Shown in pieces: positions 28,979 to 62,333 of a DNA stretch of 64,000 nucleotides; position 1 is the stretch's first letter, and each line of letters opens with the position of its first letter. The notes under the pieces are model-generated. The model was not told the origin of the DNA. It was given only the letters and a program-made list of their open reading frames with translations, and ran no database searches. This DNA is from Dictyostelium discoideum (lineage: Eukaryota). A program made the position numbers and the translations under genes. The stretch lies in contig CM000154.2 in the NCBI GenBank assembly GCA_000004695.1, positions 2,912,001-2,976,000 of the forward strand. Reading direction: 5' to 3'.

Positions 28979-29078
28979 NNNNNNNNNNNNNNNNNNNNNN
29001 NNNNNNNNNNNNNNNNNNNNNNNNNNNNNNNNNNNNNNNNNNNNNNNNNNNNNNNNNNNNNNNNNNNNNNNNNNNNNN
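28979..29078. other. Assembly gap (100 N)
   Basis: Run of n. Confidence 1.
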
Positions 29079-42953: not shown

Positions 42954-43803
42954 TTATTTGTGAAAGTTTGTTATGAAAAATAAAAAAAAAAAAAACTATT
43001 TGGATTTTTTTTTTTTTTTAATTTTTTTTTTTTATTTTGAGCATGTCATGACCCATTTTTTATTTTTATTAGAAAATTATTGATGAATTTTTGGGGTTTT
43101 TTTTTTTTTTTAATTTTTTTTTTATTTTCCAATTTGTTTTATCTTTTAAATAAATAAATCAATTCCAATACCAATTTTTTTTTTTTATATTAAATTTTGT
43201 AATTATTTTATTTATTTATTGTTTTTTTTTATTCAATTTTAATTATTTGTTTTAAAAAATAATTTAACAATCCAATAATTCTTTAATAACACAAACTATG
43301 AAATCAAATTCCAGTCCTTAAAATTCTAAATTACCGGATAATTTTTTTAATAACCTTGCACAATTAATTATGCGTGTTCGATTAATGTTTTTTTTTTTTT
43401 TTTTATACAAAGATTATTTTGGTTTGATTGTATTCCAAATTTTTTTTTTTTTTGAATTGGATAACGCAATTATTATTTGCTTCTCCTTGAGATGCTAGAT
43501 CTCATTTTATTTTATTTTTTTTTTTTTTTTTACAGGGTCTCTAAAAGAGGGGTTAGTTTACTTTTTTTTTTTTTTTTTTTTTTTTGTTTCGAATTTTGAA
43601 TTGTATTATTACTTTTGATTAAAACATCTTTTTTGTCCAAACTTTTTTCTAAATCTTTTTTTATTTTATCGTCTGGTTCGTGATTGATGTTTATGACGTA
43701 TTTGAATTGTTTTTTTTTTAATTGAGTTTTATCCACAATTTCGCTTATTTTTTGTAGGCATTTGTGTTGCTTAATATTTGTGGTGTTGTTTGTGATTTTC
43801 ATT

Positions 43804-43903
43804 NNNNNNNNNNNNNNNNNNNNNNNNNNNNNNNNNNNNNNNNNNNNNNNNNNNNNNNNNNNNNNNNNNNNNNNNNNNNNNNNNNNNNNNNNNNNNNNNN
43901 NNN
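43804..43903. other. Assembly gap (100 N) at the left edge of a tandem repeat array
   Basis: Run of n. Confidence 1.
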
Positions 43904-44640
43904 CAATAAAGTAAAAAGATGGCTTTTTAAGATAGTTTATTTATTTATTTATTTGTTTTTTAAGTCTTTTTTATATGAAAAATGAAATAATCAAAAAAAG
44001 AGATTGTTGTTGTTGTTTGTTTTTTTTCGATCTGATTATTTTTTGCTTTTTTTTGAAAATTTTGCTACGCAAAATTCTCAAAACGAAACAAATAATAAAT
44101 TACAATAAAGTAAAAAGATGGCTTTTTAAGATAGTTTATTTATTTATTTATTTGTTTTTTAAGTCTTTTTTATATGAAAAATGAAATAATCAAAAAAAGA
44201 GATTGTTGTTGTTGTTTGTTTTTTTTCGATCTGATTATTTTTTGCTTTTTTTTGAAAATTTTGCTACGCAAAATTCTCAAAACGAAACAAATAATAAATT
44301 ACAATAAAGTAAAAAGATGGCTTTTTAAGATAGTTTATTTATTTATTTATTTGTTTTTTAAGTCTTTTTTATATGAAAAATGAAATAATCAAAAAAAGAG
44401 ATTGTTGTTGTTGTTTGTTTTTTTTCGATCTGATTATTTTTTGCTTTTTTTTGAAAATTTTGCTACGCAAAATTCTCAAAACGAAACAAATAATAAATTA
44501 CAATAAAGTAAAAAGATGGCTTTTTAAGATAGTTTATTTATTTATTTATTTGTTTTTTAAGTCTTTTTTATATGAAAAATGAAATAATCAAAAAAAGAGA
44601 TTGTTGTTGTTGTTTGTTTTTTTTCGATCTCATTGTATTC
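43904..44640. repeat. Tandem repeat array, 199-bp unit, 3.7 or more copies (left side truncated by gap). The array ends about 40-50 bp upstream of tRNA-Pro.
   Basis: Track ORFs 43975, 44174 and 44373 are identical and spaced 199 nt. Unit: aaaaatgaaataatcaaaaaaagagattgttgttgttgtttgttttttttcgatctgattattttttgcttttttttgaaaattttgctacgcaaaattctcaaaacgaaacaaataataaattacaataaagtaaaaagatggctttttaagatagtttatttatttatttatttgttttttaagtcttttttatatg. The last copy diverges after …ttttttttcgatct. Confidence 0.95.
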
Positions 44641-44679
44641 CAAATAATTTTAAGCGTTCCAAATCCCAAATTTCAAAAT

Positions 44680-44750
44680 GGGAGATTAGTTAAGTGGTAT
44701 AATGCTACCTTTGGGTGGTAGCGTCCTGAGTTCGATTCTCGGATCTCCCC
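44680..44750 (+). tRNA. tRNA-Pro (anticodon UGG), 71 nt without CCA
   Basis: Cloverleaf read by hand:
- Acceptor GGGAGAT/ATCTCCC (7 bp), discriminator C.
- D-arm GTTA-AGTGGTA-TAAT.
- Anticodon stem CTACC/GGTAG with loop TTTGGGT, giving anticodon TGG.
- T-stem CTGAG/CTCGG with loop TTCGATT (B box).
An identical copy lies on the minus strand at 58447..58517. Confidence 0.85.
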
Positions 44751-44781
44751 ATCTTTTAAGATCCGAAACAATAGATTACAT

Positions 44782-44790
44782 GTTCGATTC
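44782..44790 (+). promoter_or_regulatory. Putative external B box (ex-B) downstream of tRNA-Pro
   Basis: GTTCGATTC about 32 bp downstream of the tRNA 3' end, within a 3' flank (atcttttaagatccgaa.caatagat.acatgttcgattcctata) conserved at both tRNA-Pro copies. Extra B boxes downstream of tRNA genes are an established feature of D. discoideum tRNA loci. Confidence 0.5.
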
Positions 44791-44899
44791 CTATATTTAT
44801 TTGGTATTCAAACTCTAATTTTTTAATATTTTAAAAAAAAAAACAAAAAAAATAAAAAAGTTTTTTTGGAGTAATTTAGGGTTGGCAATGTCCCTAGAG

Positions 44900-44932
<33 letters not shown>

Positions 44933-45192
44933 GACCCAAAATGACCTAAAATTTTTTTTTTTGACCCAAGATGACCCAAAATTTTTTAATTTGGCATTAT
45001 TTACTAAAAAAAAAAAAAAAAACTTAAAAAATTAAGAAAAATAAATTTAAAAAAATAGAAAAATTTTGATAAGATATTTTTGTATTCTAAATTTTTGATT
45101 AGTTTTTTTTTTTTTAGGTTTTCTTTTTTTTTTTTTTTTCATCATTTTTTTATATAAAATAAAATTAGATTTATAATTTTTATTCTCAAATC

Positions 45193-45654
45193 ATGATATC
45201 AAATAATAATAATAATAGAATATGTACACTTCATCCAAACAGATTTTTAATGTTTTTTTGTTTGGATTGCCAATTAATTCCATGTTGTGCTCAGTGTACC
45301 TCAGTTTCAGGTGAACATCATGGTCATAAAACTAATGAATAGGATGTGAATCCAAAAATAAATGAAAGAATCGAAGAGGATCAAAAAATATTAAAAGAAT
45401 CAAATGAAAAATTTGATAGAATTAAAACTCAATATGAAACAAATGTGGGAATATTGGAAAGGGAAATTAAAAAAATCCATGATATAGCTTCAATAGTACA
45501 AATAGAGGTCCAGAAAACATTATCGGTAGCTTTTGAAATGAATACATCAATAAATGATAGAATAGCTTTTTCAATCGAGAATGATAATGAAACACTTTCT
45601 AGCGATATGAGTAAAAATATTAGTTTTGATATATTCATTTATATCAGTATTTAA
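45193..45654 (+). pseudogene. B-box-type zinc finger + coiled-coil protein fragment interrupted by an in-frame TAG (pseudogene or sequence error)
   Basis: ATG at 45193 encodes [49 protein letters not shown] (Cys/His spacing B-box-like). TAG follows at about 45340. The same frame then continues DVNPKINERIEEDQKILKESNEKFDRIKTQYETNVGILEREIKKIHDIASIVQIEVQK… with heptad-like coiled-coil character (this is track ORF 45346..45654, whose GTG is mis-called M). A local duplication of agcgatatgagtaaaaatat (45596 and 45815) suggests decay. Confidence 0.4.
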
Positions 45655-45973
45655 ATGAATGGTTCGATTTTCGTATTCTTTTAATTTTTATGAGGAAAGT
45701 GGAATTAATAGTAATAATAATATTAATAATGATAATAATAATAATAATAATGTTAATGGTAGTAATGAAGAGAGAGAAATCCAAATGGCAATTTAACAAT
45801 CTTTTAGAAGTTTCTATAGCGATATGAGTAAAAATATGGTATGAATGTCCAGAAAGTATTCATTATATATCTGATCTACCATCTGTGGGTCTTATATAAT
45901 AAATTTTATTTTTTTCTAATCAATCATTAGATAAATTTGTAATATTTTTACAATACCAAATTAATGTTATTAT

Positions 45974-46018
<45 letters not shown>

Positions 46019-46323
46019 AATAAACAAGATAAATAAAAAAATAATTAAGTTAAATAAAAATAAAAAATAATTAAAATAATCTTTGATCTATTTTTTTTTT
46101 TTTTTTAACCAAATTTATTTATTGGGAATTTAAAATCAGAAAATTTTTCCCCCCCTTTATTAAATTTTTTTTTTTAAAAAAAATTTCCCAAAGGTAAAAA
46201 TATTAATTTTAAAAATTTAAATAATTTTAAAACCCAAAAATTTCAAAAAAAAAAAAAAAATTTTTTTTTTAACAAAAAATTTTTAAAGGTCAATTAATTT
46301 TAATTTTTTTTATTTAATTGGTT

Positions 46324-46366
<43 letters not shown>

Positions 46367-46706
46367 CACCAACCAATTCATCATTTTTTTTATTTGAATT
46401 AATTTATAAAAAATTAAAAAATTGATTTAATTAATTTTTTTTTTTTTATTTTCATTTTTTATTTTTTTTTATTTTTTTTTATTTTTTTTTTTTTTTGTTT
46501 TTATTTTTTTTTTTATTTTTTTATTTTTTTATTTTTTTTTTATTAATTATAACCTTTCACATGATATAGTCGACAATATTTGAAGTCATTCAAATAATTT
46601 TTAATAAACAAAAATAAAATTTAATAAAATAAAATTTATAGAAAACAATATAAAATAAAAACAAAAAACAAAGTAATAAAAATATTAAAAAAAAAAAAAA
46701 AAAGAT

Positions 46707-47311
46707 ATGGGAGGGTCTCAAAGTAAAAAATTAACAAAAAAATGTAAGTTTAGTATATATATATATATATTTATTCACAGCGCAGAATAATAATAATAAC
46801 AATAGTAATATTAATGTGACATATAATAATTTAATAATCACAATTAATATAGTAGAACAAAATGAAATCGATAGAATTCAAAGTTTATTTAATGATATAT
46901 CAGTACCAATAAAATCAGTTAAATCAATTGATAGAGATGGATTTAAAAGATTTCATTTAATTCCAGAACCACTATCCGATAGAATATTCAATTTATTTGA
47001 ACAATCAACAAAAAAAGGTGGATCTATGACTTTTGATGATTTATTATCAGGTTTAGCAGTTTGTGGTAAATCAACTGAAAAAGATAAAGTTAATGGTAAT
47101 TATTATTATTATTTTATAATATCATTATAAATTTTAAAATATATTTACTTTTTTTTTTTCAATTTTTTTTTTATTTTTTTTTTTTATTTAGTTATATTTA
47201 AATTTATAGATATTGATGATGATGGTATAATAACAAAAGAAGAGATATCAGTATTATCAGTTGTTTCATTAGAGAATGCAAATTCTCCAAAAATATTCTC
47301 AAATGGTAAAT

Positions 47312-47377
<66 letters not shown>

Positions 47378-48981
47378 ATTTCGGAATGTTAATATATACA
47401 TATATAAAATAATATTATATAGATGATAATCCATTACTTTTACAAGTTGTAGGTATGGGATTCCCAAAACATAAAGTTAATACAGCATTAAAAGAGACTA
47501 GAAATGGCACAGTTGGTACACCTGGTAGTAATCCTGTTGAAAATATAGTATCTTGGTTATTAGTCAATCAAAGTTCTGTATGTAATAGTATTTTAAAGAT
47601 GATGATGATGATGAGTATATACATATAATTTATTAAAATAATTATTTATAAAATTTAGGAAAGTGATTCAGGTATTGATGAAGAATCAAAGCAACAACAA
47701 CAACCAACATCAGTTAAACCAGATCCAAAATCAATTGAAGAATTAACAATTGGATTAAATTTATCAACTATATTAACAACATTTGAAGGATTATTCGATG
47801 TTTTAGATAAAGAAGGTAGTGGTAAGATTACATTAGCTAAATTTAAGAAATGGGCATCATCAACAAAGAAACCACATGAATTAGATTCATTATTGAAACC
47901 AATAGCTGCATTATATGATAGAGCAATTAAATGGAAATCTGAATCAAATTCATCCTCATCTTCATCAGCATTAAATCAATCAAATGGTAGTGGTAATGAA
48001 CAAGTTGTTGCTGCACCTTCTGTTGAAAGATCAACTTCTCAATCAAGTTTAAATGGACAAACAACAACAACGACACCAACACAATCACCATCAATAACTT
48101 CAACTAATCCACCAAATATAATTAGTAATAGTAATAATACTTCGTCATCTGATTTAAACAATAATATTAATAATAATAATAACAATAATAATACAAATCC
48201 AAAAGAATTAAAAAGATATTCATCAGTTTCAGTTATGGAATCAACGAAAAAAGATAAAGAAAAACAAGAAAAACAAGAAAAAGAAAGAGAGAAACAAGAA
48301 AAAGAAAGAGAAAAACAAGAGAAAAAAGCAGAAAAAGAGAGGGAAAAATTAGAAAAAGAAAAAGAAAAAGATAAAGAAAAGGATACAACAAATACAACAA
48401 CAACCACTACTACTACAGCAGCAACTACAACAACACCAACACCAATTAATTCTAGTAGTAATATAGTTAAATCATCAAGTAATTCATCAATATCAAAAAA
48501 TAATAACAATAGTAATGTTAATGATGGTGATTCATCATTTGATTCAGATAGTGATGATGAAGTTATTAAACCAGCTATTCAAGTGGTTATTAGAGATAAA
48601 CCAATTGAAAGTCAAAAGAGTGAAAATTCATTATTTAATATTGAACCTTCAATTGGTATTGTTAAACCAATGCTTAGTAAAGCTGCTACCTTAAGAACTA
48701 GAGGCAGTAGATCAAATAGAAATACAATGGATCCTGAATTATTCTCTTCACTTCAACCATTAACTCCAACTTCAAAACATACTACTACCACTGCAACTAA
48801 TACAAATACAAATACAAACACATCAACAACTTCACCAAATTTATCATCACCATTATCACCAACACCATCATCACCATTATCACCAACACCCTCAAATAGA
48901 AACCCATTAGGTCACAGTAATACTATTGTATCATCACCACCACCATATGTAACATCACAATCTAATGCAAGTTTCTTTTCA

Positions 48982-49018
<37 letters not shown>

Positions 49019-49625
49019 GTAGTAATAATATCAATAATAATAATAATAGTAATAATAATAATAATATAATCAATAATCAAAATAAAGATAATTTCACAGA
49101 TACAGCATCATCTAATAGTAATCCAACAAGTCCGATTTCACAAAAATTAAATTCTGAAAGTATCGAATATATGAAGAAATGTATAAATCAAATGGAAAAT
49201 GGTAACTTTAAAGAAGCAATTTTAGATTTGGATCAATGTATTAAAATATTATGTGTGTATAAAATTTTATTTAAAAAATAATATTAATAATTTTATTTTA
49301 TATTAATTTTTTTTTTTATTTTTTTTATTTTAAATAGTACAAGTTCATTCAAATAATTTATCAATTATTCAAAATGAAATTAATTTTTGTGTTGGATATA
49401 AAGTTACATTAAATTTATTAATAGAAATTAAAGAAATTGAAAAGAAGATTGAACAAGAATCAAATAAGGATGAAGTATCATCATATTATGAAACCATTGC
49501 TTTATTATCTAAATTTTTAGTCGACATTCCACTTCAAACTAATCATAGATTAGTTTGTGCAAAAATGGCTGTAAAATATAATTTAATTTCAAATAATTTT
49601 GGTATAGCTGGTAAATTAATAGAGG

Positions 49626-49663
<38 letters not shown>

Positions 49664-50052
49664 TTATAAAATAATACATTTATTAATTATTTATTAATTA
49701 TTTATTTAATTATTTTTGAAAGATTATTTTACAAAAAGGTATAAATTTAGGTGATAAAGAAAAAGAACAATATGAAATTCAATTACAACAATGTAGAGAT
49801 AATCAATTTAATAATTCAAGTTTACCAATGTATATTTGTCCAAGTTGTAAATCATCAACATCTTGTAGTTCAATTAGATGTTCTTGTTTGAGACCTGTAA
49901 GATGGTGTTTTCAAACTTTTCAACTTATTAAAGATTTAACCTTTTTACAATGTAATTATTGTTATTCAACTTTTTCAATTAATCAATCTGAAGTTGTTTC
50001 AAAATCAATTTGTCCATCTTGTAATCATGGTATAATTAATACTAAAAATTAA
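46707..50052 (+). CDS. Novel multi-domain protein. Domains in order: N-myristoylation motif (MGGSQSK), EF-hand(s), UBA-like domain, long S/T/N-rich and E/K-repeat low-complexity region, C-terminal helical + Cys-rich domain. 7 exons: join(46707..46743, 46781..47095, 47192..47305, 47423..47577, 47659..49252, 49338..49624, 49723..50052).
   Basis: Exon 1 MGGSQSKKLTKK|GTAAGT. Exon 2 reads …DRIFNLFEQSTKKGGSMTFDDLLSGLAVCGKSTEKDKVN (CHP/calcineurin-B-like). Exon 3 VIFKFIDIDDDGIITKEEISVL is a canonical EF loop DxDxDG…E. Exon 4 …QVVGMGFPKHKVNTALKETRNGTVGTPGSNPVENIVSWLLVNQSS|GTATGT is a UBA-like MGF…WLL pattern. Exon 5 contains DVLDKEGSGKITLAKF, the track ORF 47893..49281 and a KEKQEKQEKEREKQEKEREKQEKKAEKEREK repeat. 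Exons 6-7 give …YYETIALLSKFLVDIPLQTNHRLVCAKMAVKYNLISNNFGIAGKLIE|…MYICPSCKSSTSCSSIRCSCLRPVRWCF…CPSCNHGIINTKN*. All junctions keep frame. Donors are GTAAGT, GTAATT, GTAAAT, GTATGT, GTATTT and one weak GTGTGT at 49253 (so the exon 5/6 boundary is low confidence). The C-terminal region loosely resembles the alpha-COP C-terminal domain. Confidence 0.6.
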
Positions 50053-50176
50053 TAATAATAATTATTATTATTATTATTATTATTACTATTACTATTATTA
50101 TTATTATTATTATTTTTATTTATAAAAAAAATAATAAAATTTTGGTATAAACAATATAACAAATAATAACTCAAAA

Positions 50177-50276
50177 NNNNNNNNNNNNNNNNNNNNNNNN
50201 NNNNNNNNNNNNNNNNNNNNNNNNNNNNNNNNNNNNNNNNNNNNNNNNNNNNNNNNNNNNNNNNNNNNNNNNNNNN
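50177..50276. other. Assembly gap (100 N)
   Basis: Run of n. Confidence 1.
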
Positions 50277-51455
50277 AAAAAAAAGGTTATTAAAAAAAAA
50301 ATAATAATATTAATTTTTAAAGAAAATAAAAGATTATGTGGAAATTATTTTAAAAGAAAATTTTTGATGATCCCATCCTGATTTACTATTATTGGTTTTA
50401 AAAAAAAAAAAAAAAAAAAAAAGTTTTTCAACTGATAAGGGTTAATTTGGTTGAATGAATTGGTTGTGGTGATGTGTGGTGTGTTATTATTTTAAAAGAA
50501 TAATGGTAATATTTTGTATCTTTTTTTAATTTCTAAAAATAAAAAGTTTATAAAGGTATTATTTTTTTTTTTTTTTTTTTTTTTTTTATTTTTTTTTTAT
50601 TTTTTTTTTTACAACCCAAATTCATTCACATCATAAATCTCAATAAATAATAAAATAATTAAAACATATCCACTTTACAACTTTATTTTTAGATTTATTG
50701 AATTGTGTAACCTAAACACTTTTCAACTTAATTTTTTTTTTTTTTTTTTTTAAATTAAAAAAAGATATTTTAAAAAATGTAATTTCAAAAAAAGATATTT
50801 TTTTTTATTTTTTTAAATTTTATTTTGTTTTTTTTTTTTTTTTTTTGATAATTAATTTTTTATAATTTCAGCCTTTTTTATATATCTTTGAATTAAGATT
50901 TAGAAATCCCATTCACCATATATATAACACTTTTTTTTTTTTTTGCAATTGGGGGTATTTTTTAAACTATTTTTAACTTTAATAAAATTAAAAAATGGGC
51001 TCCAATTAAAGTGTTTGAATGAAAATGGGAAATAATTTGGTAAAAAAAAAATAAAAATAAAAAAACATAAAATTGATGTTCTAAAAATCTCTCAATGATC
51101 ATTCAATCTTTAAAAAAATAATTCAAACCATATGTATATATTTTATGTGGCTCAATATATGGTGCTATTGAAGAGATTATTTGAACATCAAGTTTATGGT
51201 TTTTAAGTTAATAAAAAAAAAAAAAATTATAGGGCTTTTAAAGGAATGAGCTATTTTTAATTATTTTTTTTTTTTCTCACCCCGCCACACAAGGAAAAAA
51301 ACCACCCAAAATTTTTTTTTTTTTTATTTTTGGAATTTTTAAATCTAAAAGTTAAGATTTGTGTTAATTTTTTTTATCATTTTTTTTTTTTATTATTTTT
51401 TTTTTTTTAATAATTTTTTTTATTATTTTTTTTTATTTACCTTTTTTGTGTTTCA

Positions 51456-51502
<47 letters not shown>

Positions 51503-52197
51503 ATTTTATTATTTTATTTCAAACAACACATTTCAATCCATCACATATATATACATATAAAAAAAAAATCTACACATACATTGTAACATAGTTGTAATTT
51601 GTAAAATACCATATATATATTATAAAAATCATTTCAATTTTTTTTTATTAAAATTATTTTAAATTACAAATAAAACAAAAAAAAAAATAAATAAAAAAAA
51701 TAAAATTGGGTAAGTTTTATTTTTCAACAATCAATTTCATTTTTTTTTTATTTTTTATTTTTTATTTTTTTTTCCTTTTTCATTTTTTTTATTTCTTAAT
51801 TTATTTTTTTATTTTTTTTTAATTATTTTTTTTTTTTTATAATTATTTCTTTTTTTATCAGTATTAAAAAAGACAATTTTATTTATAAAAAATTAAAAAA
51901 AAAAAAATTAAAAAATAAAAAAAAAAAAATTTTAATCAAATATAAACCACTTCACACACCACACACACTTTTTAACTTTTTTTTTTTTTTTTATTTTTTT
52001 TTTTTATTTTTTTTTTTATTTTTTTATTTTTTTTTTTTTTTACTATAATATTATAATAATATTATTTTGTATCAATCTAGAAAAAATTATTAGTATTGTT
52101 TTAACCTAACCTATAAATATAAACATTGTTTAAAATTATAAAGACAATATAATAAATAAATCAAAACATATAATTATTATTATTTTTTTTTTTTTTC

Positions 52198-52235
<38 letters not shown>

Positions 52236-52469
52236 CATTTTTTAATTATTATTATAATTAAATATACTTTAAACGTACTAATATTTCAATCAAATAAATC
52301 ACCAAAAATAGGAACCACAATAATACTGTAATAACAATAAAAATAATTTAATTACTACCAAATTAATCATACAAAATTTTAAAAAATTAATAATAAAAAA
52401 ATTAATTTAAATAAAAAAAAAAAAAATAAAAAAAATAAAAACAGTAAAAAATAAAAAAATAATTAAAAA

Positions 52470-52502
52470 ATGTTTAAATTATTTAAAAAAAAAGAAGTAC
52501 CA

Positions 52503-52561
<59 letters not shown>

Positions 52562-54659
52562 AAATAATAATAATGAAAATAAAATTTTAACACCAAGAAT
52601 TAATGGTGCAGATCAATCATCAACAACAACAACAATTACAAATATTCAGACTAGTGGTGAAAAGAAATTAAAAACTAAATTATCAAAGAGTGAATTAACA
52701 AAGAGTGATAGTACAACAAGTAGTTTAGCAAATAGTCCAAGAAGTGAAAAAGCGGAAATGGGTATTAGAGATATTCCATATGATCTTTTGGGTAAATTAT
52801 TGGCGTTAATTCATGGTAATCGTATATTGACCAAAGAATTTATGTCAACAAGTTTAGTATGTAGAAAATGGAGAGCATTGGCACGTCTTAATGGTAATCA
52901 TTTCAATTTGGAATCATTTTTTAAAAAGGTAGAAGCAAGTAAAATGAGAGTTGAAACCATTGAAAGCTGTATCAATTATTTCACCTACATTTACCAAGCA
53001 TTGGAAATCATTGATATTGGTAAACTTTGTATAAATAATAGAATCTATTCAAAATATTCAATCTTTTTAATTGAATCATTGGATAAAATCACCAAACTCT
53101 CATTGGATATGTCAAAAGTTACATTGTCAGAGTTTGAAGTATTAGCATCAAGTTTAAAATCATTGAAAGCAACCAAAGATGTAACCATTCATTGTATGAC
53201 ACATCATTATTGTAATGCAATGATATCCGTATTCGAATCGTTACCAGAGTTGGAGAGTTTAAAGTTTACAGAGATGACATTTGAAAATTCAAATGAAGAT
53301 CATGATCTATTCGTACAATATTTGAAAAAGAATAATACAATACAGAAGTTATCAATAACTTTATTACCTGACAATACAAGATTCTTAAATTCAATTAAAA
53401 CGATTATGGGTTCAAATAGATCAATCAACTCTTTACAACTTACTCAAAGTATTAAAAGACCATCATTAACTTCATCACCTTCTTCAAATAATGTACATAT
53501 TCCACCAAGCTCTTCAAATTCATCCTCTGCTGCTGCAATTTCAACATCACCATCATCATTTTCAAATACACAATTCAATAGTGTTTTACAAACTTCTTAT
53601 TCAATTTCAAAGTTTAATTATTCTCATGATAGTTTAAAGGAATTAAATCTATCAAATATGTCAATGAATGATACAGATATGATGGAATTGGCAGAGAATG
53701 TTTTACAAAATAATCAATCATTGAAATCATTAGATATTAGTTATAATAAAAAAGTATCCTCTGCTACAATGGAACAATTCCTAAGAATTATGTGTGCAAA
53801 TACTGATATGAAATTAGAATTTTTAAATATTAGTGGTTTATCAATTAATGATCAATGTATAAGTTTGGTTGGTGATTATCTTCAAACCAATCCTTACCTA
53901 AAGGAAATCTATATTAATGATAGTGTTGAACAATATTGGTCAGATGGATTTAGAAACTTTTCAAATAAACTTTCAAATCGTCCAGCTTTAAAAACTTTAT
54001 ACCTAAATAGAAATCGTATTGAAACTAAATGTTTCGATGATTTAGCTCATGCAATTTCAAATAATAGTTCAAATGTTAGATATTTGGGATTAAGTGGTAC
54101 TTTAAATAATGCTCAAAGTTTACATTTAATTTGTAATTCTTTAGGTTCAAATTCAAATTTAGTTTCATTGGATATTTCAAATTGTGAAGTTTGTTTCTGT
54201 CCTTCTCTAACAGATTCATTATTAAAGAATCGTTATTTAGCAAAATTAAATGTAAACAATTGTAAATTAAATCAAAAAACTCTATTGGGTATGGCAAATA
54301 GTAATCTATCCATTCTTGATATTGGTTCAAATAATTTCACTTCAGGTGATACACTTCAAGAGTTTTTCGAATCTTTAAAATCAAATCAATCACTTTACGT
54401 TTTAAATCTTTCAAATACAGGTTTAAAAACTAAAGAATGTCAAGTCCTTTCAAGTCTTTTAGATTTAAATTCAAAAATACACTCGGTTGATATCTCTCAT
54501 AATAAAATTAAATCCTCTGATATTCAATGTATCGTCAAATGTATTCAATGTAAAAATTTACCTCCTTCAACAAAATTCACTTTGAAATTAAATGATACTA
54601 AAATAGATTTATTAAAAATTTCTAATGATTTATTAAATAGTCAAATTTCTGTTGATTAA
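52470..54659 (+). CDS. F-box-like / leucine-rich repeat (RNI-like LRR) protein, 729 aa, single exon
   Basis: After a poly-Asn N-terminus: IRDIPYDLLGKLLALIHGNRILTKEFMSTSLVCRKWRAL (F-box-like). Then repeated LxxLxLSxNxI-type units (LKSLDISYNKKVSS…, LKTLYLNRNRIETKCFDDLAHAISNN…, LVSLDISNCEV…, LSILDIGSNNFTSGD…, LYVLNLSNTGLKTKECQVL…, IHSVDISHNKIKSSDIQCIV). Confidence 0.7.
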
Positions 54660-54796
54660 AAAAATAATATTAATAAAATTTTATATATATATATATATAA
54701 CTTAAAATAATGTATAAAAAACATTTGATTTTATTATTTGATTTTTCTTTTTTTTTTAATTAGTATTGACATAGAAATAAAGTTTCATCAATATAT

Positions 54797-54970
54797 GTCC
54801 CATGCCAAAATAAATATGGCTGCTGAAATTAATATGGCATGGGACTTATGTCTGCTAGAATTACCATATTAATTTCAGCAGCCATATTAATTTTGGCATG
54901 CACAGACCAACTATTTTAGGCTGAAATTAATATGGCTGCTGAAATTAATATGGTAATTTTGGCATGGGAC
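54797..54970. repeat. Compact foldback element: nested inverted and direct repeats (MITE-like or hairpin-RNA-like), about 175 bp
   Basis: tgtcccatgcc…ggcatgggac hairpin (54797-54848) encloses aaatatggctgctgaaattaatatgg. Its exact reverse complement ccatattaatttcagcagccatatt lies at 54864-54888. Direct copies gctgaaattaatatggctgctgaaattaatatgg lie at 54921-54953. attttggcatgggac recurs at 54956-54970. Confidence 0.8.
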
Positions 54971-55353
54971 AAATACGTTTTAAAAAAAAGAAATTACAAT
55001 AGTAAAATTTCTCACAATATGGCAAACCGATTCATTTTTTATAATTAAATGACAAATTAATTATTCAAATTTAATGAATGATATTAGATTTTAACAATTT
55101 TAATTAATATTAAATAATATTTTTATTTTGGCCAATGATTGTTAAGGGTATCAGGAAAGAAAATAAAGTTTGCTGGATATTTTTTTTTTTTTTTTTTTAA
55201 TTTTGGTAATTATAAATTAAATTTTTTTTTTTTTTTAAATAAAAAAAAAAGAAAAAGATTAATTATTTCATTATTAAAAAAAATTAAAATTTTTATTAAT
55301 TATAAAAAAAAAGAAATTAAAAATCATTTTATTCATTATTAAAAAAATTAAAA

Positions 55354-55919
55354 ATGAACCCAAATAAATTATTATTATTATTAATAATTGTCTTGTTGTC
55401 TATTAGCTATTCATTAGCAACGATGATTAAGTGTACTTGTGAAAAAGCTGGGGATATTCCAAATTATGCTGGCCACAATGTTACTAAGATATCGGGTAAT
55501 TTGTTAAATAATAAAAACCAAAATAATATATATAATTAATAAAAATAATTTATTTATTTATTTATTTATTTTTTTTTTTTTTTTCCATTCATATTTATTA
55601 AAAAGATTTTAAAAAAGCATTAGATGCACTAGAATATGATAATGTTTTTAATAAGGAAGGTACAATAAAAGAAATAGGAAATGTTAGAATTGAAAGAACT
55701 GGTTTTGCCATAGTAAATCGTAGAAAATGGAAAACCGTAGAAGGCCACGTGATCGGCGTCAAAGGAAATTCAACAATTTCACAAGTTGTATTTCCTAATG
55801 ATTTAAAAGATTCATTTGGTGATATTTCTAGTCAATTGAATCTTGTCAATTGTATTGATAATGCTTTGTATGATTCATATATATCTGGAAAAGTCCACAA
55901 GGTTGTCCGTAAATTTTAG
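55354..55919 (+). CDS. Small secreted protein (about 151 aa). 2 exons: 55354..55495 (signal peptide MNPNKLLLLLIIVLLSISYSLA…CTCEKAGDIPNYAGHNVTKIS) and 55606..55919.
   Basis: Donor TCGG|GTAATT (phase 1). Acceptor ttattaaaaag|AT at 55604-55605. Exon 2 reads DFKKALDALEYDNVFNKEGTIKEIGNVRIERTGFAIVNRRKWKTVEGHVIGVKGNSTISQVVFPNDLKDSFGDISSQLNLVNCIDNALYDSYISGKVHKVVRKF*. Its codon usage has G/C third positions unusual for local intergenic DNA. Track ORF 55843..56031 is an overlapping wrong-frame artefact. Confidence 0.45.
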
Positions 55920-55974
55920 AGGAATTCGTGGAAACGAAGGAATAAGAGGAAAAATTTTTATTTCCTCCATTTCC

Positions 55975-56460
55975 TTAATATTTCCTCACAAATTCCTCTT
56001 TTTCCTCTATTTCTCCTTTGAAATCCAATAATTTTTGAAGGAAAAGTAGGAAATGGAGGGAAAAAATTAAATTCCTTTTTTTCCTTTATTTCCTCAAAAA
56101 AAAAATAAAATTCCTCTTTTTTCCTTTGTTTCCTCAAAAAAAAAATAAAATTCCTCTTTTTCCCTTTATTTCCTCAAAAAAAAAATAAAATTCCTTTTTT
56201 TCCTTTATTTCCTCCTTCTTTTCCTTTTTTCCTTATTTCCTTAAAAAAAAAAAAAAAAAATTTCCTTTTTTTCCTTTATTTCCTCCTTCTTTTCCTTTAT
56301 TTCCTCCTTCTTTTCCTTTTTCCTTTATTTCCTTAAAAAAAAGAAAAAAAAAAATTTCCTTTTTTAAGGAATTTTATTTTTTTTTTCTTTTTTTTTTTTT
56401 CTTTTTTTTTTTTCTTTTTTCTTTTTTCTTTTTTCTTTTTTCTTTTTTCTTTTTTTTGTG
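55975..56460. repeat. GGAA/TTCC-rich minisatellite. About 42-bp units (aattcctctttttcctttatttcctcaaaaaaaaaataaa) x4-5, then (cttttt)n.
   Basis: Direct tandem copies visible at 56078-56250, with degenerate copies flanking. Followed by (CAAAT)9 at 56591-56635. Confidence 0.85.
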
Positions 56461-56675
56461 TTCACCAATTCCCGGAAAATAAAATTCAAATTATGGTGGA
56501 AAATGGAAAATGGAAGATCATCATATTTATAAAAATGGAAATAATTGGAAAAAAGATTAAAATGATTAAGAAAAAAAAAAAAAAAAAAATCAAATCAAAT
56601 CAAATCAAATCAAATCAAATCAAATAGAATAAAATTAAATTAAATTAAATAAAATTAAATAAAATTAAACAAAAT

Positions 56676-56731
<56 letters not shown>

Positions 56732-56831
56732 AAACTAATTAAATATATAAATAAATAAAATTGGATAATGTAAATTAATTTTTATTTATTTTATTATTTA
56801 TTTTTTTATTTATTTTATTTAATAACCGTCA

Positions 56832-56876
<45 letters not shown>

Positions 56877-57762
56877 AATTTAAAAATTAATAGTTTAAAA
56901 AAAAGAGTATTTTTATTATTTCATTTTTTTTTTATTTAAACTTTTTTTTTTTTTTTAATCACTTTAATTTAAGCAATTTTTGTTTGCTTTTGGTAACTTA
57001 AAACAAATTAAATGATCAAAGAGAAGTTCCACTACAATGGTTCTGATATAATAAAAAAATATTGAAGCTATGAGGTCTTTTGGATTTTATTGACCATTTT
57101 AATTGGTTGATAAACAATTGTTATTATTAATAATAATATTGTTATTATTTTCGTTTTTTCGATATTTCTTTAATTTTTTATTTTATTTTCCCAAAGGGAA
57201 CAAAATATAAAAGTTTGAGCAAAAAATAAAAAAAAAAAATTAAAAAAAATCAAAAAAAAAAAAAAAAAAAAAAATGGTGTAAATTTGAAAGTGAATTGTT
57301 AAAATAACTGTTTAAAAATAGTTTTTTTATTGTTTGGGTTAAATTGATAGTTTTTGATATTAAAAAAAAAATTTAGTGAATTTTATGTATTTTACTGTGA
57401 AAATTCCCCACCGTTGATGTGGGGAAATTTTTTTTTTTTTTCACTACAACAAATACTCTAACTCGATTGATTACCCCAAAATAAAACCTATGTCCAAATT
57501 AATTTCTGGTCTCAGCCTTAAAACCCTACACCTTTTTTAGAAAATTTAAAATTAAATAAAATAAAATAAAATAAAAAAATTATCAAAAAAAAAAAAAAAA
57601 AAAAAAAATAATTAAAAAAAATAAAAAATTAAATATTAAAAAAAATATAAAAAAGGAAAATTTAAATAATGATTTTTTAAAAGAGAGCCTAACGCATTTA
57701 CCATTACAATCTCATTACCACTACCACTAAAAATAAATTAATAAATAAATAAATAAATTATA

Positions 57763-57795
<33 letters not shown>

Positions 57796-58004
57796 TTTTT
57801 TTTTTTTTGTGTTATTTTTTTTTTAATTTTTTTTTTTTTTGCACTATCTCTAAATTTATTTTTGGTGTATCTATATCTTTCTTGGGTCCAATATGGAACG
57901 ATCTGTTGCGATGAATTTGAAGTTTTTCATTTTGTTGGGTTTTATAAATTCTTGTGTTTTCTTTATCAATTTTTTTTTTTTTTTAATATTGATTAATCCC
58001 AGTT

Positions 58005-58130
58005 CAAAATAAAAAAAAAGGAATAACTTTTTTACATTTCAAAATTAAATTCATAAATAAAACTATTAATTATTGCTTTGCTTGATTTAATTTTGAAATG
58101 TAAAAAAGTTATTCCTTTTTTTTTATTTTG
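58005..58130. repeat. Perfect inverted repeat: 46-bp arms separated by a 34-bp spacer (potential cruciform or MITE-like)
   Basis: Left arm caaaataaaaaaaaaggaataacttttttacatttcaaaattaaat (58005-58050). Right arm atttaattttgaaatgtaaaaaagttattcctttttttttattttg (58085-58130) is its exact reverse complement. Confidence 0.95.
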
Positions 58131-58405
58131 ATGGGATTTTATAATATAGGGTAGTTATTAATATTATTATTATTATCATTTTAAGATATCTACTTTTTAA
58201 ATATGTTAGTATTTAAAGTTAAATGTTAAATAATTAAATAAAATAATAAAATTGTAATTGTTTAGATGAATTGATCAAAGGATATAAGATTTGGAAGCAT
58301 TGATTCTGGAAAACAATATACTTTGCTAGTTAATTTTCTTTAATTATTACAATTAAAGAAACTCAGCCAATATAGACAAAATCTCTCTATTAAATAATCT
58401 ATATA

Positions 58406-58414
58406 GGAATCGAA
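58406..58414 (-). promoter_or_regulatory. Putative ex-B box downstream of the second tRNA-Pro copy
   Basis: Same conserved GTTCGATTC element as at copy 1. Confidence 0.45.
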
Positions 58415-58446
58415 CATGTGATCTATTGATTCGGATCTTAAAAGAT

Positions 58447-58517
58447 GGGGAGATCCGAGAATCGAACTCAGGACGCTACCACCCAAAGGTAGCATTATAC
58501 CACTTAACTAATCTCCC
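58447..58517 (-). tRNA. tRNA-Pro (UGG), second identical copy, minus strand
   Basis: The reverse complement of 58447-58517 is identical to the 44680-44750 tRNA. The 3' flank, including the ex-B box gttcgattcc (complement of 58406-58415), is conserved. Confidence 0.85.
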
Positions 58518-59312
58518 ATTTTGAAATTAGTGATTTTTAACGCATAAAAATATTTGAAATATTTTTTTAATTCGAAATTTTAATGTAAATTTGATTCTCA
58601 TTATTTAATTTAAGTTGAAAACATTGAGTAATAATTAAAAAAATATTAAATAAATATTAAACAAAGGTGGTTTCTACAAAAAAAAATTTCCAACACACCA
58701 ACAATTTTTTTTCACCATTCCAATTATTTCCATGTTTTGAGCCAATGATGGCACTTCCAAGTATAAACAATTAAATTTTTTAATTGCTGAACTAAATCAC
58801 CAGTACATGCACTCCAATCGCCATATTACCAATTATATTAAATCACATGATTAACCCTATAAGGATTTTGAATATTTGGAACAACATTGTAGATTTCACA
58901 AAAATATTAATGTTATTGTGTTTGTAAGCCATTTATAATTAAGGGCAACTATCCAAAAACTATTATTGATAAAATTGAAATTTTCAACATTATTTTGATT
59001 GTTATGATTCTTTTTTTCTTTTTTTTTTTTTTTTATAATAACACAATGAAATTTTTAAAAATAATACCAAATCATTAGAATTTCTTTAGATTATATAATT
59101 GGTTTATTAATTTGGTGAAGGTTATTTTTTTTTCAAATTATTAACTTCTTTTCAAAAAAACCGATAAAAACTTATTTGTTTTTAAAAAAAAAAAAAAAAA
59201 TTCCCATTAATTTAAGTTTCTGTACACTGTTTAAAATAATAAAAAAATATCTTTTAATTCCCACCTCGAGGTTTAGCCCGAAATTTTTTAGTAAAGTCTC
59301 GAATTTTTCAGC

Positions 59313-59354
<42 letters not shown>

Positions 59355-59495: not shown

Positions 59496-60644
59496 ATGAA
59501 TAAATTAATATTAAATGTTCTATTTATAGCAATAATTATTTGTGGTGTTGTAAATTCTTTAGGTTTTACAAGTACAACAACATTAATTGTTGATGTAACT
59601 CAAAATAACCAATATCCAAAATATGGAACATGTGGTACTGCCAGTAAAACATGTAATAATATTCAAGATGCAATTAATTATTATAATAGAATTTCCCAAA
59701 ATTCCAATATCCAACAATTAAATTTATTATTAGCCGATGGTGTATTTAATAATACAAATAATTTTATTGAATTTAAAAAATTCAATACAACTATTTCTCC
59801 ATTAAATGTTGGATCTGAAAATGTAATTTTCGATGGTTCAGTAGGTACTAAATCCAAGGAAACCCTATTCTCATTTGTCAGCTCAACAATTTGGATTACC
59901 GGTATTCAATTTGTTAATTTCCAAAGTGAAAGTTCTTTAATCTATAGTGAATCTGGCCAAATCAATATTGACCAATGCTCTTTCAAAAATGTTTCAAGTA
60001 AAGATGGCACTGTTTATTTAAAGAGTTCAAATAGTTTAATCTCAAATACAATTTTCACATCAAACTCTGTCAAGAAAACTTCCGATTCCGCCTCAGTTAT
60101 CAGCTTTTTCACAAGCTACACAAATAAATTCATAATCTCCAAATGCCAATTCAACAATAATGTCGCATTGAATGGCGGTGCCATTTACGCCAAAAACACT
60201 GCACTTATTACTGTTCCAGATCCACTTGTGTCCTTGATTGAGAATACCCTTTTCAATGGTAATGTTGCAAGTGGAAAAGGCGGTGCACTCTACACTGACA
60301 ATATTCTATTAATCGTCGATTCAAATGTTTTCACTAATAACACCTCACCAACTGGTAGTATTATTAATTTAAACAATGGTCTTATGAATATTACCTCTTC
60401 TTCATTCTACTCTGGAACTAGTTTAAACTATTTCTTATCAACTATTATCTATACAACTAAATCAGATTTAAATATTGATGATAGTACTTTTGATAGAAGT
60501 TTTTCAGTTGCAATTAATTGTGATTCTTCAACTGTTATAACTCAAAATAATAATCTTTCACTCAGATTAGTTTGTTATAATTGTATTTCAATTATTGAAG
60601 GTACTCAAGATTGTCAAGGAGTTCCAAAAAATTTAGATTACTAA
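59496..60644 (+). CDS. Secreted right-handed parallel beta-helix repeat protein (pectin-lyase-fold-like), 382 aa, signal peptide
   Basis: MNKLILNVLFIAIIICGVVNS signal peptide. Repeated ~22-residue Asn/Ser/Thr/Gly-rich turns (NNVALNGGAIYAKNTALITV, NGNVASGKGGALYTDNILLIVDSNVFTNN, …) typical of PbH1 beta-helix repeats. Many NxS/T sites. Cys-rich C-terminus. Confidence 0.6.
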   Translation: MNKLILNVLFIAIIICGVVNSLGFTSTTTLIVDVTQNNQYPKYGTCGTASKTCNNIQDAINYYNRISQNSNIQQLNLLLADGVFNNTNNFIEFKKFNTTISPLNVGSENVIFDGSVGTKSKETLFSFVSSTIWITGIQFVNFQSESSLIYSESGQINIDQCSFKNVSSKDGTVYLKSSNSLISNTIFTSNSVKKTSDSASVISFFTSYTNKFIISKCQFNNNVALNGGAIYAKNTALITVPDPLVSLIENTLFNGNVASGKGGALYTDNILLIVDSNVFTNNTSPTGSIINLNNGLMNITSSSFYSGTSLNYFLSTIIYTTKSDLNIDDSTFDRSFSVAINCDSSTVITQNNNLSLRLVCYNCISIIEGTQDCQGVPKNLDY

Positions 60645-62233: not shown

Positions 62234-62333
62234 NNNNNNNNNNNNNNNNNNNNNNNNNNNNNNNNNNNNNNNNNNNNNNNNNNNNNNNNNNNNNNNNNNN
62301 NNNNNNNNNNNNNNNNNNNNNNNNNNNNNNNNN
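62234..62333. other. Assembly gap (100 N)
   Basis: Run of n. Confidence 1.

Follow-up and report, generated by a model that had tools for sequence, protein, structure and literature searches.

An inverted pair of tRNA-Pro(UGG) genes with external B boxes in Dictyostelium discoideum, with flanks probably matched by gene conversion and the bracketed segment inverted

An external B box (ex-B) lies downstream of 66 to 80% of Dictyostelium discoideum tRNA genes (PMC3159450, PMC5911963), and it is drawn on social-amoeba tRNA genes, about 80% of them, as a target or landmark of TRE3 (PMC5911963). It was originally described by Hofmann et al. (1991, J Mol Biol 222:537) and also by Siol et al. (2006, MCB 26:8242), both as cited in PMC3159450. 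Its position is given as "~41 bp downstream" (PMC3159450), and a distance of ~100 bp from the internal B box has also been published. External B boxes lack the 5'-GTC-3' found 5 to 7 bp upstream of internal B boxes, for which the D. discoideum consensus is GTCnnnnGTTCRAnYC (PMC3159450); the corresponding A-box consensus is TRRYNNARYNG (PMC5391098). On the other side of the gene, TRE5 elements insert 44 to 54 bp upstream of the tRNA in the opposite orientation (PMC5911963), and TRE5-A is organized in A, B, and C modules, usually with one or two A-modules (PMC3159450, PMC5911963). Pairs and triplets of tRNA genes with the same anticodon have been noted in the D. discoideum genome (Eichinger et al. 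2005, as cited in PMC8163159).

Gene conversion and inversion at inverted tRNA pairs are documented mainly in yeasts. Kellis and colleagues reportedly described, in 2003, inversions that have tRNA genes of one isoacceptor type in opposite orientation at their two ends. Rearrangement breakpoints at tRNA genes in yeasts are also described by Gordon, Byrne & Wolfe (2009, PMC2675101).

The window analyzed here, a 64-kb stretch of D. discoideum AX4 chromosome 5, has a GC content of ~20% and includes a mir-7131 match and a 382-aa gene at 59496-60644 that is exactly DDB_G0289575 of D. discoideum AX4. It contains exactly two tRNA genes (ARAGORN), both Pro(tgg), facing each other across 13.7 kb. Taken as a whole, the locus is quite probably a pair of tRNA-Pro genes of the known ex-B kind, with flanks that have been matched by gene conversion and a bracketed segment that has been inverted. 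External B boxes behind most tRNA genes and same-anticodon tRNA pairs are already known for D. discoideum, and the lineage-specific homogenization and the inversion history are a modest, probably unreported example of known genome dynamics, providing a concrete, datable case in an amoebozoan.

The tRNA-Pro(UGG) genes and their external B boxes

44680-44750, + strand: tRNA-Pro(UGG) copy A, 71 nt, without intron and without encoded CCA (ARAGORN and Rfam RF00005)
58447-58517, - strand: tRNA-Pro(UGG) copy B, equal to copy A base for base and convergent with it (ARAGORN and Rfam RF00005)
44687-44697, + strand: A box TAGTTAAGTGG, beginning at tRNA +8 and fitting TRRYNNARYNG (PMC5391098)
44723-44738 (core 44730-44738), + strand: internal B box with GTC signature, GTCCTGAGTTCGATTC, fitting GTCnnnnGTTCRAnYC (PMC3159450)
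44754-44757, + strand: T4 run, predicted Pol III terminator of copy A, starting 4 nt past the tRNA end
58440-58443, - strand: T4 run, predicted terminator of copy B, read from the sequence
44775-44790, + strand: external B box block of copy A, ATTACATGTTCGATTC, with the core GTTCGATTC at 44782-44790
58407-58415, - strand: external B box core GTTCGATTC of copy B (motif search and mismatch map)
44751-58446, no strand: segment between the tRNA genes, 13.7 kb, with a ~1057-aa gene, the F-box/LRR gene at 52470-54659, and mir-7131

Both copies have a cloverleaf with its anticodon, an A box, a B box, and an oligo-T terminator, and both score 57 bits against Rfam RF00005 (E=1e-9; gathering score 29). 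They are standard Pol III type-2 genes, with transcription and processing predicted from these features. The initial annotation had named two identical, inverted tRNA-Pro(UGG) genes 13.7 kb apart and proposed a cloverleaf search as a check; ARAGORN, Rfam, and base-by-base comparison bear the pair out, with both programs accepting the two loci at exact coordinates. JGI metagenome contigs, searched for exact matches to the 38 nt at the 3' end of the tRNA to find further tRNA-Pro loci, yielded none.

Five gaps of 100 N interrupt the window, and one lies 776 nt away from copy A; a single tRNA locus could in principle have been placed twice in such a gapped reference. However, a second D. discoideum assembly, L001 (GCA_054883475.1), in which the regional proteins are 100% identical, reproduces both copies with the same flanks and with distinct outer flanks, so the copies are not an assembly artefact of AX4; a second isolate and D. 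cf. discoideum (below) also carry both. The chance that one locus has been counted twice is therefore negligible.

The ex-B core GTTCGATTC is a perfect match to the B-box core and lies 31 nt past the tRNA end, 52 nt past the internal B box, and beyond the T4 terminator. The sequence GTTCGANTC occurs four times in the window, once in each internal B box and once downstream of each gene, compared with 0.15 occurrences expected, and none of 100 shuffles reached four. The internal B boxes carry the GTC signature, but none is present 5' of the ex-B core, where the preceding sequence is agattacat.

For comparison, the loci of the F-box/LRR orthologues were taken with ±10 kb each from D. citrinum, D. 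dimigraforme, D. firmibasis, and D. purpureum, and further loci, from a second D. discoideum isolate, "FIW" (locus tag ACTFIW), and from D. cf. discoideum, were found via protein cluster members. A tRNA-Pro(tgg) gene flanks the LRR gene in every genome examined except D. purpureum, giving 11 tRNA-Pro copies from six genomes, with D. dimigraforme represented by copy B only within the fetched locus. All 11 distinct copies from the six genomes have the same 71-nt gene sequence, and 10 of the 11 have a T4-T6 run at +4 to +6. The motif GTTCGAnTC is likewise kept in 10 of the 11 (AX4, FIW, D. cf. discoideum, D. citrinum, D. dimigraforme, and D. firmibasis), and the distance of the ex-B from the tRNA end is 31 to 34 nt across all 11 copies. 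With the trailers anchored on the motif, an extended ex-B consensus, ATCACnnGTTCGATTC, is conserved across species, and the spacer between tRNA and ex-B is near background identity between species. As to the upstream GTC, copy A of D. firmibasis (fir_A) is the exception, with GTCGCGGGTTCGAGTC.

Within the flank, only a ~16-nt block made up of the ex-B core and ~7 nt before it looks selected. The motif appears constrained yet not indispensable: in D. cf. discoideum copy B the ex-B is mutated to GGTCAATTC, so it is dispensable at least sometimes. Near the syntenic place in D. purpureum, a tRNA-Ala(AGC) gene has no canonical ex-B box within 70 nt, which says nothing about how general the element is. 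By analogy with published work, the ex-B box is a TFIIIC-type site outside the transcript, with TFIIIC binding presumed from the literature. The second B-box-like element of the initial annotation is an ex-B box as it proposed, having a perfect core past T4, no GTC, and a distance kept in 10/11 copies, and fitting the descriptions in PMC3159450 and PMC5911963.

Age of the pair and the TRE5-type element beside copy A

Both copies are syntenic in four other genomes (FIW, D. cf. discoideum, D. citrinum, and D. firmibasis), copy A of D. firmibasis being in direct rather than inverted orientation, and both tRNA-Pro genes are absent from the syntenic place in D. purpureum. By these syntenic comparisons, the pair is old and predates the splits of D. 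citrinum and D. firmibasis. This bears directly on the proposal of a recent duplication, whether segmental or mediated by a retroelement. If an inverted segment had been duplicated recently, the flanks would match simply because the duplicated DNA has not yet diverged; this agrees with the 100% identity of the genes and 96% identity of the trailers in AX4, and duplications are common in laboratory D. discoideum stocks (PMC2643946). However, homology between the copies stops after 166 nt, the FIW trailers have diverged (33/58), and the pair is syntenic in all four genomes named above; because it predates the D. citrinum and D. firmibasis splits, we take a recent duplication to be excluded and give this explanation scarcely any credence.

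The retroelement variant of the proposal draws attention to an insertion just upstream of copy A, with the following parts:

43441-44631, - strand: putative TRE5-type non-LTR retroelement, interrupted by a 100-N gap at 43804-43903 (TRF, BLAST, and junction repeats)
43904-44634 (plus-strand coordinates), - strand: 199-bp tandem array, the part nearest the tRNA, abutting the 100-N gap (TRF)
43587-43803, - strand: B-module-like piece with a short ORF, beyond the gap in the minus-strand 5'-to-3' order of the element
43455-43562, - strand: C-module-like piece, after the B-module-like piece
43441-43454, - strand: oligo(A) at the 3' end of the element, a T run on the plus strand
43427-43440 (left) and 44632-44645 (right), + strand: 14-bp target-site duplication ATTGTATTCCAAAT, with only two occurrences in the window, exactly at the junctions

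The 5' end of the element (44631) lies 48 nt upstream of tRNA +1, and its orientation is opposite to that of the gene. We assign the insertion to the TRE5 type by analogy, from its position, orientation, oligo(A), and module lengths, which fit the description of TRE5-A. It shares with TRE5-A (DRE) the 48-nt position, orientation, oligo(A), 14-bp duplication, and ~200-bp repeated 5' module, as well as the order of parts, in which this module is followed by an ATG-carrying piece and then a terminal piece of ~110 to 135 nt. It differs in that the 199-bp unit is far more amplified, the gap-free assembly (GCA_054883475.1) having 11.6 or more copies of it in tandem; the likeness is to the published description rather than to a reference sequence, and the comparison of the 199-bp unit with the published 200-bp A-module is by length only. 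The interior of the element lies in the 100-N gap, and no RT/APE ORF is visible; Dictyostelium proteomes contain six homologues of its short ORF, all dispersed and none of them named. The 9-bp sequence GATCTCATT (43498 and 44626) was an alternative candidate for the target-site duplication; the 14-bp repeat, which coincides exactly with the junctions at the oligo(A) and at the 5' end, was preferred.

Relatives of the element occur elsewhere in the group. Upstream of copy B in D. cf. discoideum is a 5'-truncated relative with its own 15-bp duplication, AAATTAAACCGGATA, in which the B-module-like piece matches at 92% over 175 nt and a 57-nt terminal piece at 96%; it is accompanied by a duplicated 5' flank and the first 25 nt of the tRNA. 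The terminal 57-nt piece is also found upstream of copy B in D. citrinum, and a unit related to the 199-bp unit is present in the native 5' flank of copy A in D. cf. discoideum. In FIW, copy A has an empty site without the insertion. The interval 43447-43560 was at one stage regarded as an orthologous flank common with D. citrinum, and this was rejected: it is mobile-element sequence, because the same 57-nt piece recurs upstream of copy B in D. cf. discoideum, where the outer surroundings differ and a target-site duplication of its own bounds it, and it is absent in FIW.

A tRNA-targeted retrotransposon could have carried or templated a tRNA gene with its flanks to a second site. The element lies only 48 nt upstream of copy A, and the partial duplication in D. 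cf. discoideum demonstrates that retroelement-associated duplication does occur at this locus. However, AX4 is the only genome with the element at copy A (FIW copy A lacks it), the 166-nt shared tract contains no poly(A), target-site duplication, or element sequence, and the pair is older than the insertion. Copying by a retroelement is hardly credible as the origin of the pair, and the TRE5-type element is not the cause of the similarity between A and B.

Similarity of the flanks within and between lineages

A repeat search of the window places the two genes in inverted-repeat arms at 44636-44801 and 58396-58561 (166 nt, 93% identity); among the top inverted-repeat pairs of the window, this is the only one that is not (AAT)n-type low complexity. 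Mismatches between the copies number 7/44 in the 5' flank, 0/71 in the tRNA, and 2/46 in the first 46 nt of the trailer.

44636-44679, + strand: 5' flank of copy A, 37/44 identical (84%) to that of copy B
58518-58561, - strand: 5' flank of copy B (mismatch map)
44751-44796, + strand: trailer of copy A, putatively homogenized, 44/46 (96%) identical to that of copy B
58401-58446, - strand: trailer of copy B, putatively homogenized (mismatch map)

The 46-nt AX4 trailer of the pair reads atcttttaagatccgaa.caatagat.acatGTTCGATTCctatat. Its mismatches are at 44768 (A/T) and 44777 (T/C), and similarity is lost from 44797 onward. The initial annotation, comparing by eye, had put the matching 3' flank at about 55 bp; its two mismatches are exactly those found, and the flanks hold up when properly aligned (44/46 in the mismatch map). 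The 84% similarity of the 5' flanks had escaped it. The 5' flank of copy A also contains a box, AATTTTAAGCGTTnnAAATnnnnAATTTCAAAAT, that is common to all six copies of the discoideum clade.

Within AX4 the paralogues resemble each other more than they resemble their orthologues in FIW. By MAFFT identity matrix, the trailers of the AX4 paralogues (AX4_A/AX4_B) are identical at 46/50 positions, compared with 30/58 for the orthologues AX4_A/FIW_A and 40/50 for the orthologues AX4_B/FIW_B; the FIW paralogues (FIW_A/FIW_B) match at only 33/58. In the proximal 20 nt of the trailer, the AX4 paralogues agree at 19/20, and the AX4 and FIW orthologues at 8/21 and 11/20. Identity between copies over the whole trailer is specific to AX4, and AX4_A has states of the B lineage, "caatagat" before the ex-B and "ctata" after it, that are present in FIW_B and not in FIW_A. 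In the 5' flanks, A and B match at 33/44 in AX4 (MAFFT; 37/44 ungapped), 28/45 in FIW, and 44/46 in D. cf. discoideum.

An attractive reading of the AX4 flanks, and that of the initial annotation, is purifying selection on the whole ~50-nt trailer, for example as an extended TFIIIC/terminator module or as a processing signal. The 44/46 match in AX4 is consistent with it, as is an 8-bp inverted repeat, TCGGATCT (44739-44746) and AGATCCGA (44759-44766), that brackets the T4 run. However, the AX4 and FIW orthologues are poorly conserved over the proximal 20 nt, as given above, the inverted repeat is absent in FIW, D. cf. discoideum, D. citrinum, D. dimigraforme, and D. firmibasis, and only ATCACnnGTTCGATTC is retained. 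Since the FIW trailers match at 33/58 and only the ~16 nt about the motif are conserved, it is very unlikely that the entire flank is under selection. A functional hairpin, with an 8-bp stem formed between the tRNA 3' end and the trailer, was rejected since the stem is AX4-specific.

The best reading is that the trailer has been homogenized by recent gene conversion between old inverted paralogues, a mechanism suggested by the pattern of identities: paralogues are more similar to each other than to their orthologues, the matching tract is bounded, and different tracts are matched in different lineages. In AX4 the trailer would reflect a recent conversion between the old paralogues, most likely in the direction B to A, with a tract of 46 to ~128 nt (minimum 44751-44796, maximum 44669-44796). 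The 5' flank of D. cf. discoideum (44/46) would have been homogenized independently. The paralogue comparison in AX4 covers this pair among the tRNA-Pro(UGG) genes of the genome, and the AX4 trailer may instead have been copied from a third tRNA-Pro(UGG) locus.

The comparison separates constraint, on ~16 nt around the ex-B core, from homogenization, in the rest of the trailer, which matches only in AX4. It also carries a warning, in that identity between the flanks of tRNA paralogues in one reference strain is not to be read as selection.

Inversion of the 13.7-kb segment and comparison with known systems

Compared with three sister species, the discoideum clade has the stretch between the tRNA genes in reversed orientation with respect to the genes outside it (tblastn, blastn, and gene tables). 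AX4, FIW, and D. cf. discoideum share the order g1460(+) C48(-) TIG(+), then A(+) g~1000(+) LRR(+) B(-), then PMP(+) EnY2(-), whereas D. citrinum and D. firmibasis have PMP(-), then A, g~950(+) LRR(+) B(-), then TIG(-) C48(+) g1460(-). D. dimigraforme has the same order as D. citrinum on the LRR-to-TIG side, the PMP/copy-A side being outside the fetched locus. The AX4 gene order agrees across three independent assemblies, so its misassembly is unlikely. We found no report of this inversion, and in the paper on the D. firmibasis genome, synteny is treated at large scale only.

The breakpoint intervals are 43104-46351 and 54725-59345 in AX4 and 12252-13525 and 200-3701 (1.3 kb and 3.5 kb) in D. 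citrinum, and each contains one tRNA-Pro gene. Sensitive blastn with 1.5-kb flanks gave noise-level HSPs of ~60% except for one match, between the 5' flanks of AX4_A and D. citrinum copy B (cit_B); the AT-rich intergenic DNA is too diverged to fix the breakpoints to the base. There are hints in the blastn results that each trailer may travel with its outer neighbor, which would place the breakpoints just downstream of the ex-B boxes. Most simply, the inversion would have come from a crossover in which the two inverted tRNA genes recombined, or from one immediately next to them, which would make the tRNA genes the presumed crossover sites. The LRR gene of D. purpureum has an AX4-like orientation relative to g1460/C48, without tRNA-Pro genes, and given this orientation the polarity of the inversion is ambiguous and the segment may have flipped more than once. 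A further caveat is the direct orientation of copy A in D. firmibasis.

These events can be drawn together by regarding the inverted pair as a small recombination module, with ~70 to 170 nt of shared sequence, that has given rise to a B-to-A trailer conversion in the AX4 lineage, an independent homogenization of the 5' flank in D. cf. discoideum, and a flip of the 13.7-kb segment, with its two protein genes (and mir-7131 in AX4), now fixed in the discoideum clade. We lean, if only slightly, toward this proposal. If it generalizes, same-anticodon tRNA pairs would be a systematic source of micro-inversions and flank homogenization in Dictyostelium.

Each component of the locus has a counterpart among described systems. 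The ex-B box differs in nothing essential from the published dictyostelid ex-B, which accompanies most tRNA genes of D. discoideum and is taken to be an additional TFIIIC site and a landmark for TRE3: both have the GTTCRAnYC core, a few tens of nucleotides downstream, past the terminator, and without GTC. It lies 31 nt from the gene end here, compared with a published ~41 bp that is approximate and without a stated reference point, and for the tRNA-Pro(UGG) genes of group-4 species, the extended block ATCACnnGTTCGATTC is an addition. It also resembles yeast ETC sites and solo B boxes in having the same B-box consensus outside a transcribed Pol III gene, as a presumed TFIIIC site (PMC5391098, PMC3159450), but the ex-B, known here from sequence, belongs to a complete tRNA gene, from which it keeps a fixed distance, and does not stand alone.

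Like the same-anticodon tRNA pairs noted in D. discoideum, this locus has two identical isoacceptor genes a few kilobases apart, but this pair is an old one, apparently kept similar by conversion, and not a fresh duplicate. With the yeast tRNA breakpoints it shares an identical, oppositely oriented tRNA gene in each breakpoint interval and ectopic recombination as the proposed cause. It differs in being from an amoebozoan, in having a homologous substrate of ~70 to 170 nt, and in the resolution of its breakpoint intervals to 1.3 to 3.5 kb.

Trailers of the tRNA-Pro genes

The proximal trailers of the inverted tRNA-Pro(UGG) pair, copy A (44680-44750, +) and copy B (58447-58517, -), contain an AX4-specific segment, AGATCCGA, which is the exact reverse complement of TCGGATCT in the tRNA, such that an 8-bp palindrome flanks the T4 terminator (window 44739-44766 and 58431-58458). 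The palindrome is present in none of the other genomes compared with AX4, and may reflect a templated mutation, by foldback or template switching, rather than a functional hairpin. The D. citrinum copy B trailer (L002 12995-13069) lacks any stretch of at least four Ts before position +75, and the external B (ex-B) box would thus precede the first strong terminator. The two D. firmibasis tRNA-Pro copies share a strand and form a direct rather than inverted pair; the ex-B box of the PMP-side copy (L004 2481-2551) carries the GTC signature (GTCGCGGGTTCGAGTC), as in the internal B box. The D. cf. discoideum copy B trailer (L009 13262-13270 region) has a degenerate ex-B box, GGTCAATTC.

Gene order and probable insertions near copy B

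The region upstream of D. cf. discoideum copy B contains the following:

L009 13374-14050, region with a duplicated 5' flank, a truncated tRNA-Pro fragment and a retroelement copy
L009 13887-13911, the truncated tRNA-Pro fragment (first 25 nt of the gene)

The duplicated flank and the tRNA fragment lie upstream of the retroelement copy, which is 5'-truncated and has a 15-bp target-site duplication. The motif of the proximal 5' flank, AGCGTTCAAA..AAAATTTCAAAATG, also occurs twice, at a distance of about 85 nt.

Between the F-box/LRR gene and copy B there is a segment of about 3 kb (window 54797-57850) for which no counterpart was found in strain FIW or D. cf. discoideum. It includes a called 128-aa gene, as well as a microRNA:

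window 54813-54890, mir-7131 hairpin (Rfam, 82.6 bits)

The segment appears to be an insertion, specific to the strain or lineage, that carries the miRNA.

In D. purpureum (L005), tRNA-Pro was not found at the syntenic position, nor were the TIG and ~1,000-aa genes found between C48 and the LRR gene. Relative to g1460/C48, its LRR gene is oriented as in AX4 and not as in D. citrinum or D. firmibasis, so that the inversion may have had either polarity or may have occurred more than once.

Assembly gaps, and repeats near copy A

Five runs of exactly 100 N are gaps in the reference assembly:

7127-7226
28979-29078
43804-43903
50177-50276
62234-62333

Those at 43804, 50177, and 62234 are closed in a second, gap-free assembly (L001, GCA_054883475.1), with lengths differing from the reference.

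About 170 nt downstream of copy A, the 30-bp unit TTTTTTTTTTTGACCCAAAATGACCCAAAA is tandemly repeated (2.2 copies, window 44922-44987), roughly at the integration distance expected of TRE3-type elements. No features of such an element were seen there.

A putative TRE5-type insertion, flanked by a 14-bp target-site duplication, is located 48 nt upstream of copy A:

window 43441-44631, putative TRE5-type insertion
window 43804-43903, N gap within it
window 43904-44634, its array of 199-bp units

In the window, 3.7 copies of the 199-bp 5' unit lie before the N gap, but the gap-free assembly (L001 1-2311) has at least 11.6 in tandem, a lower bound as the array continues past the locus edge. TRE5-A is described as having far fewer A-modules, one or two.
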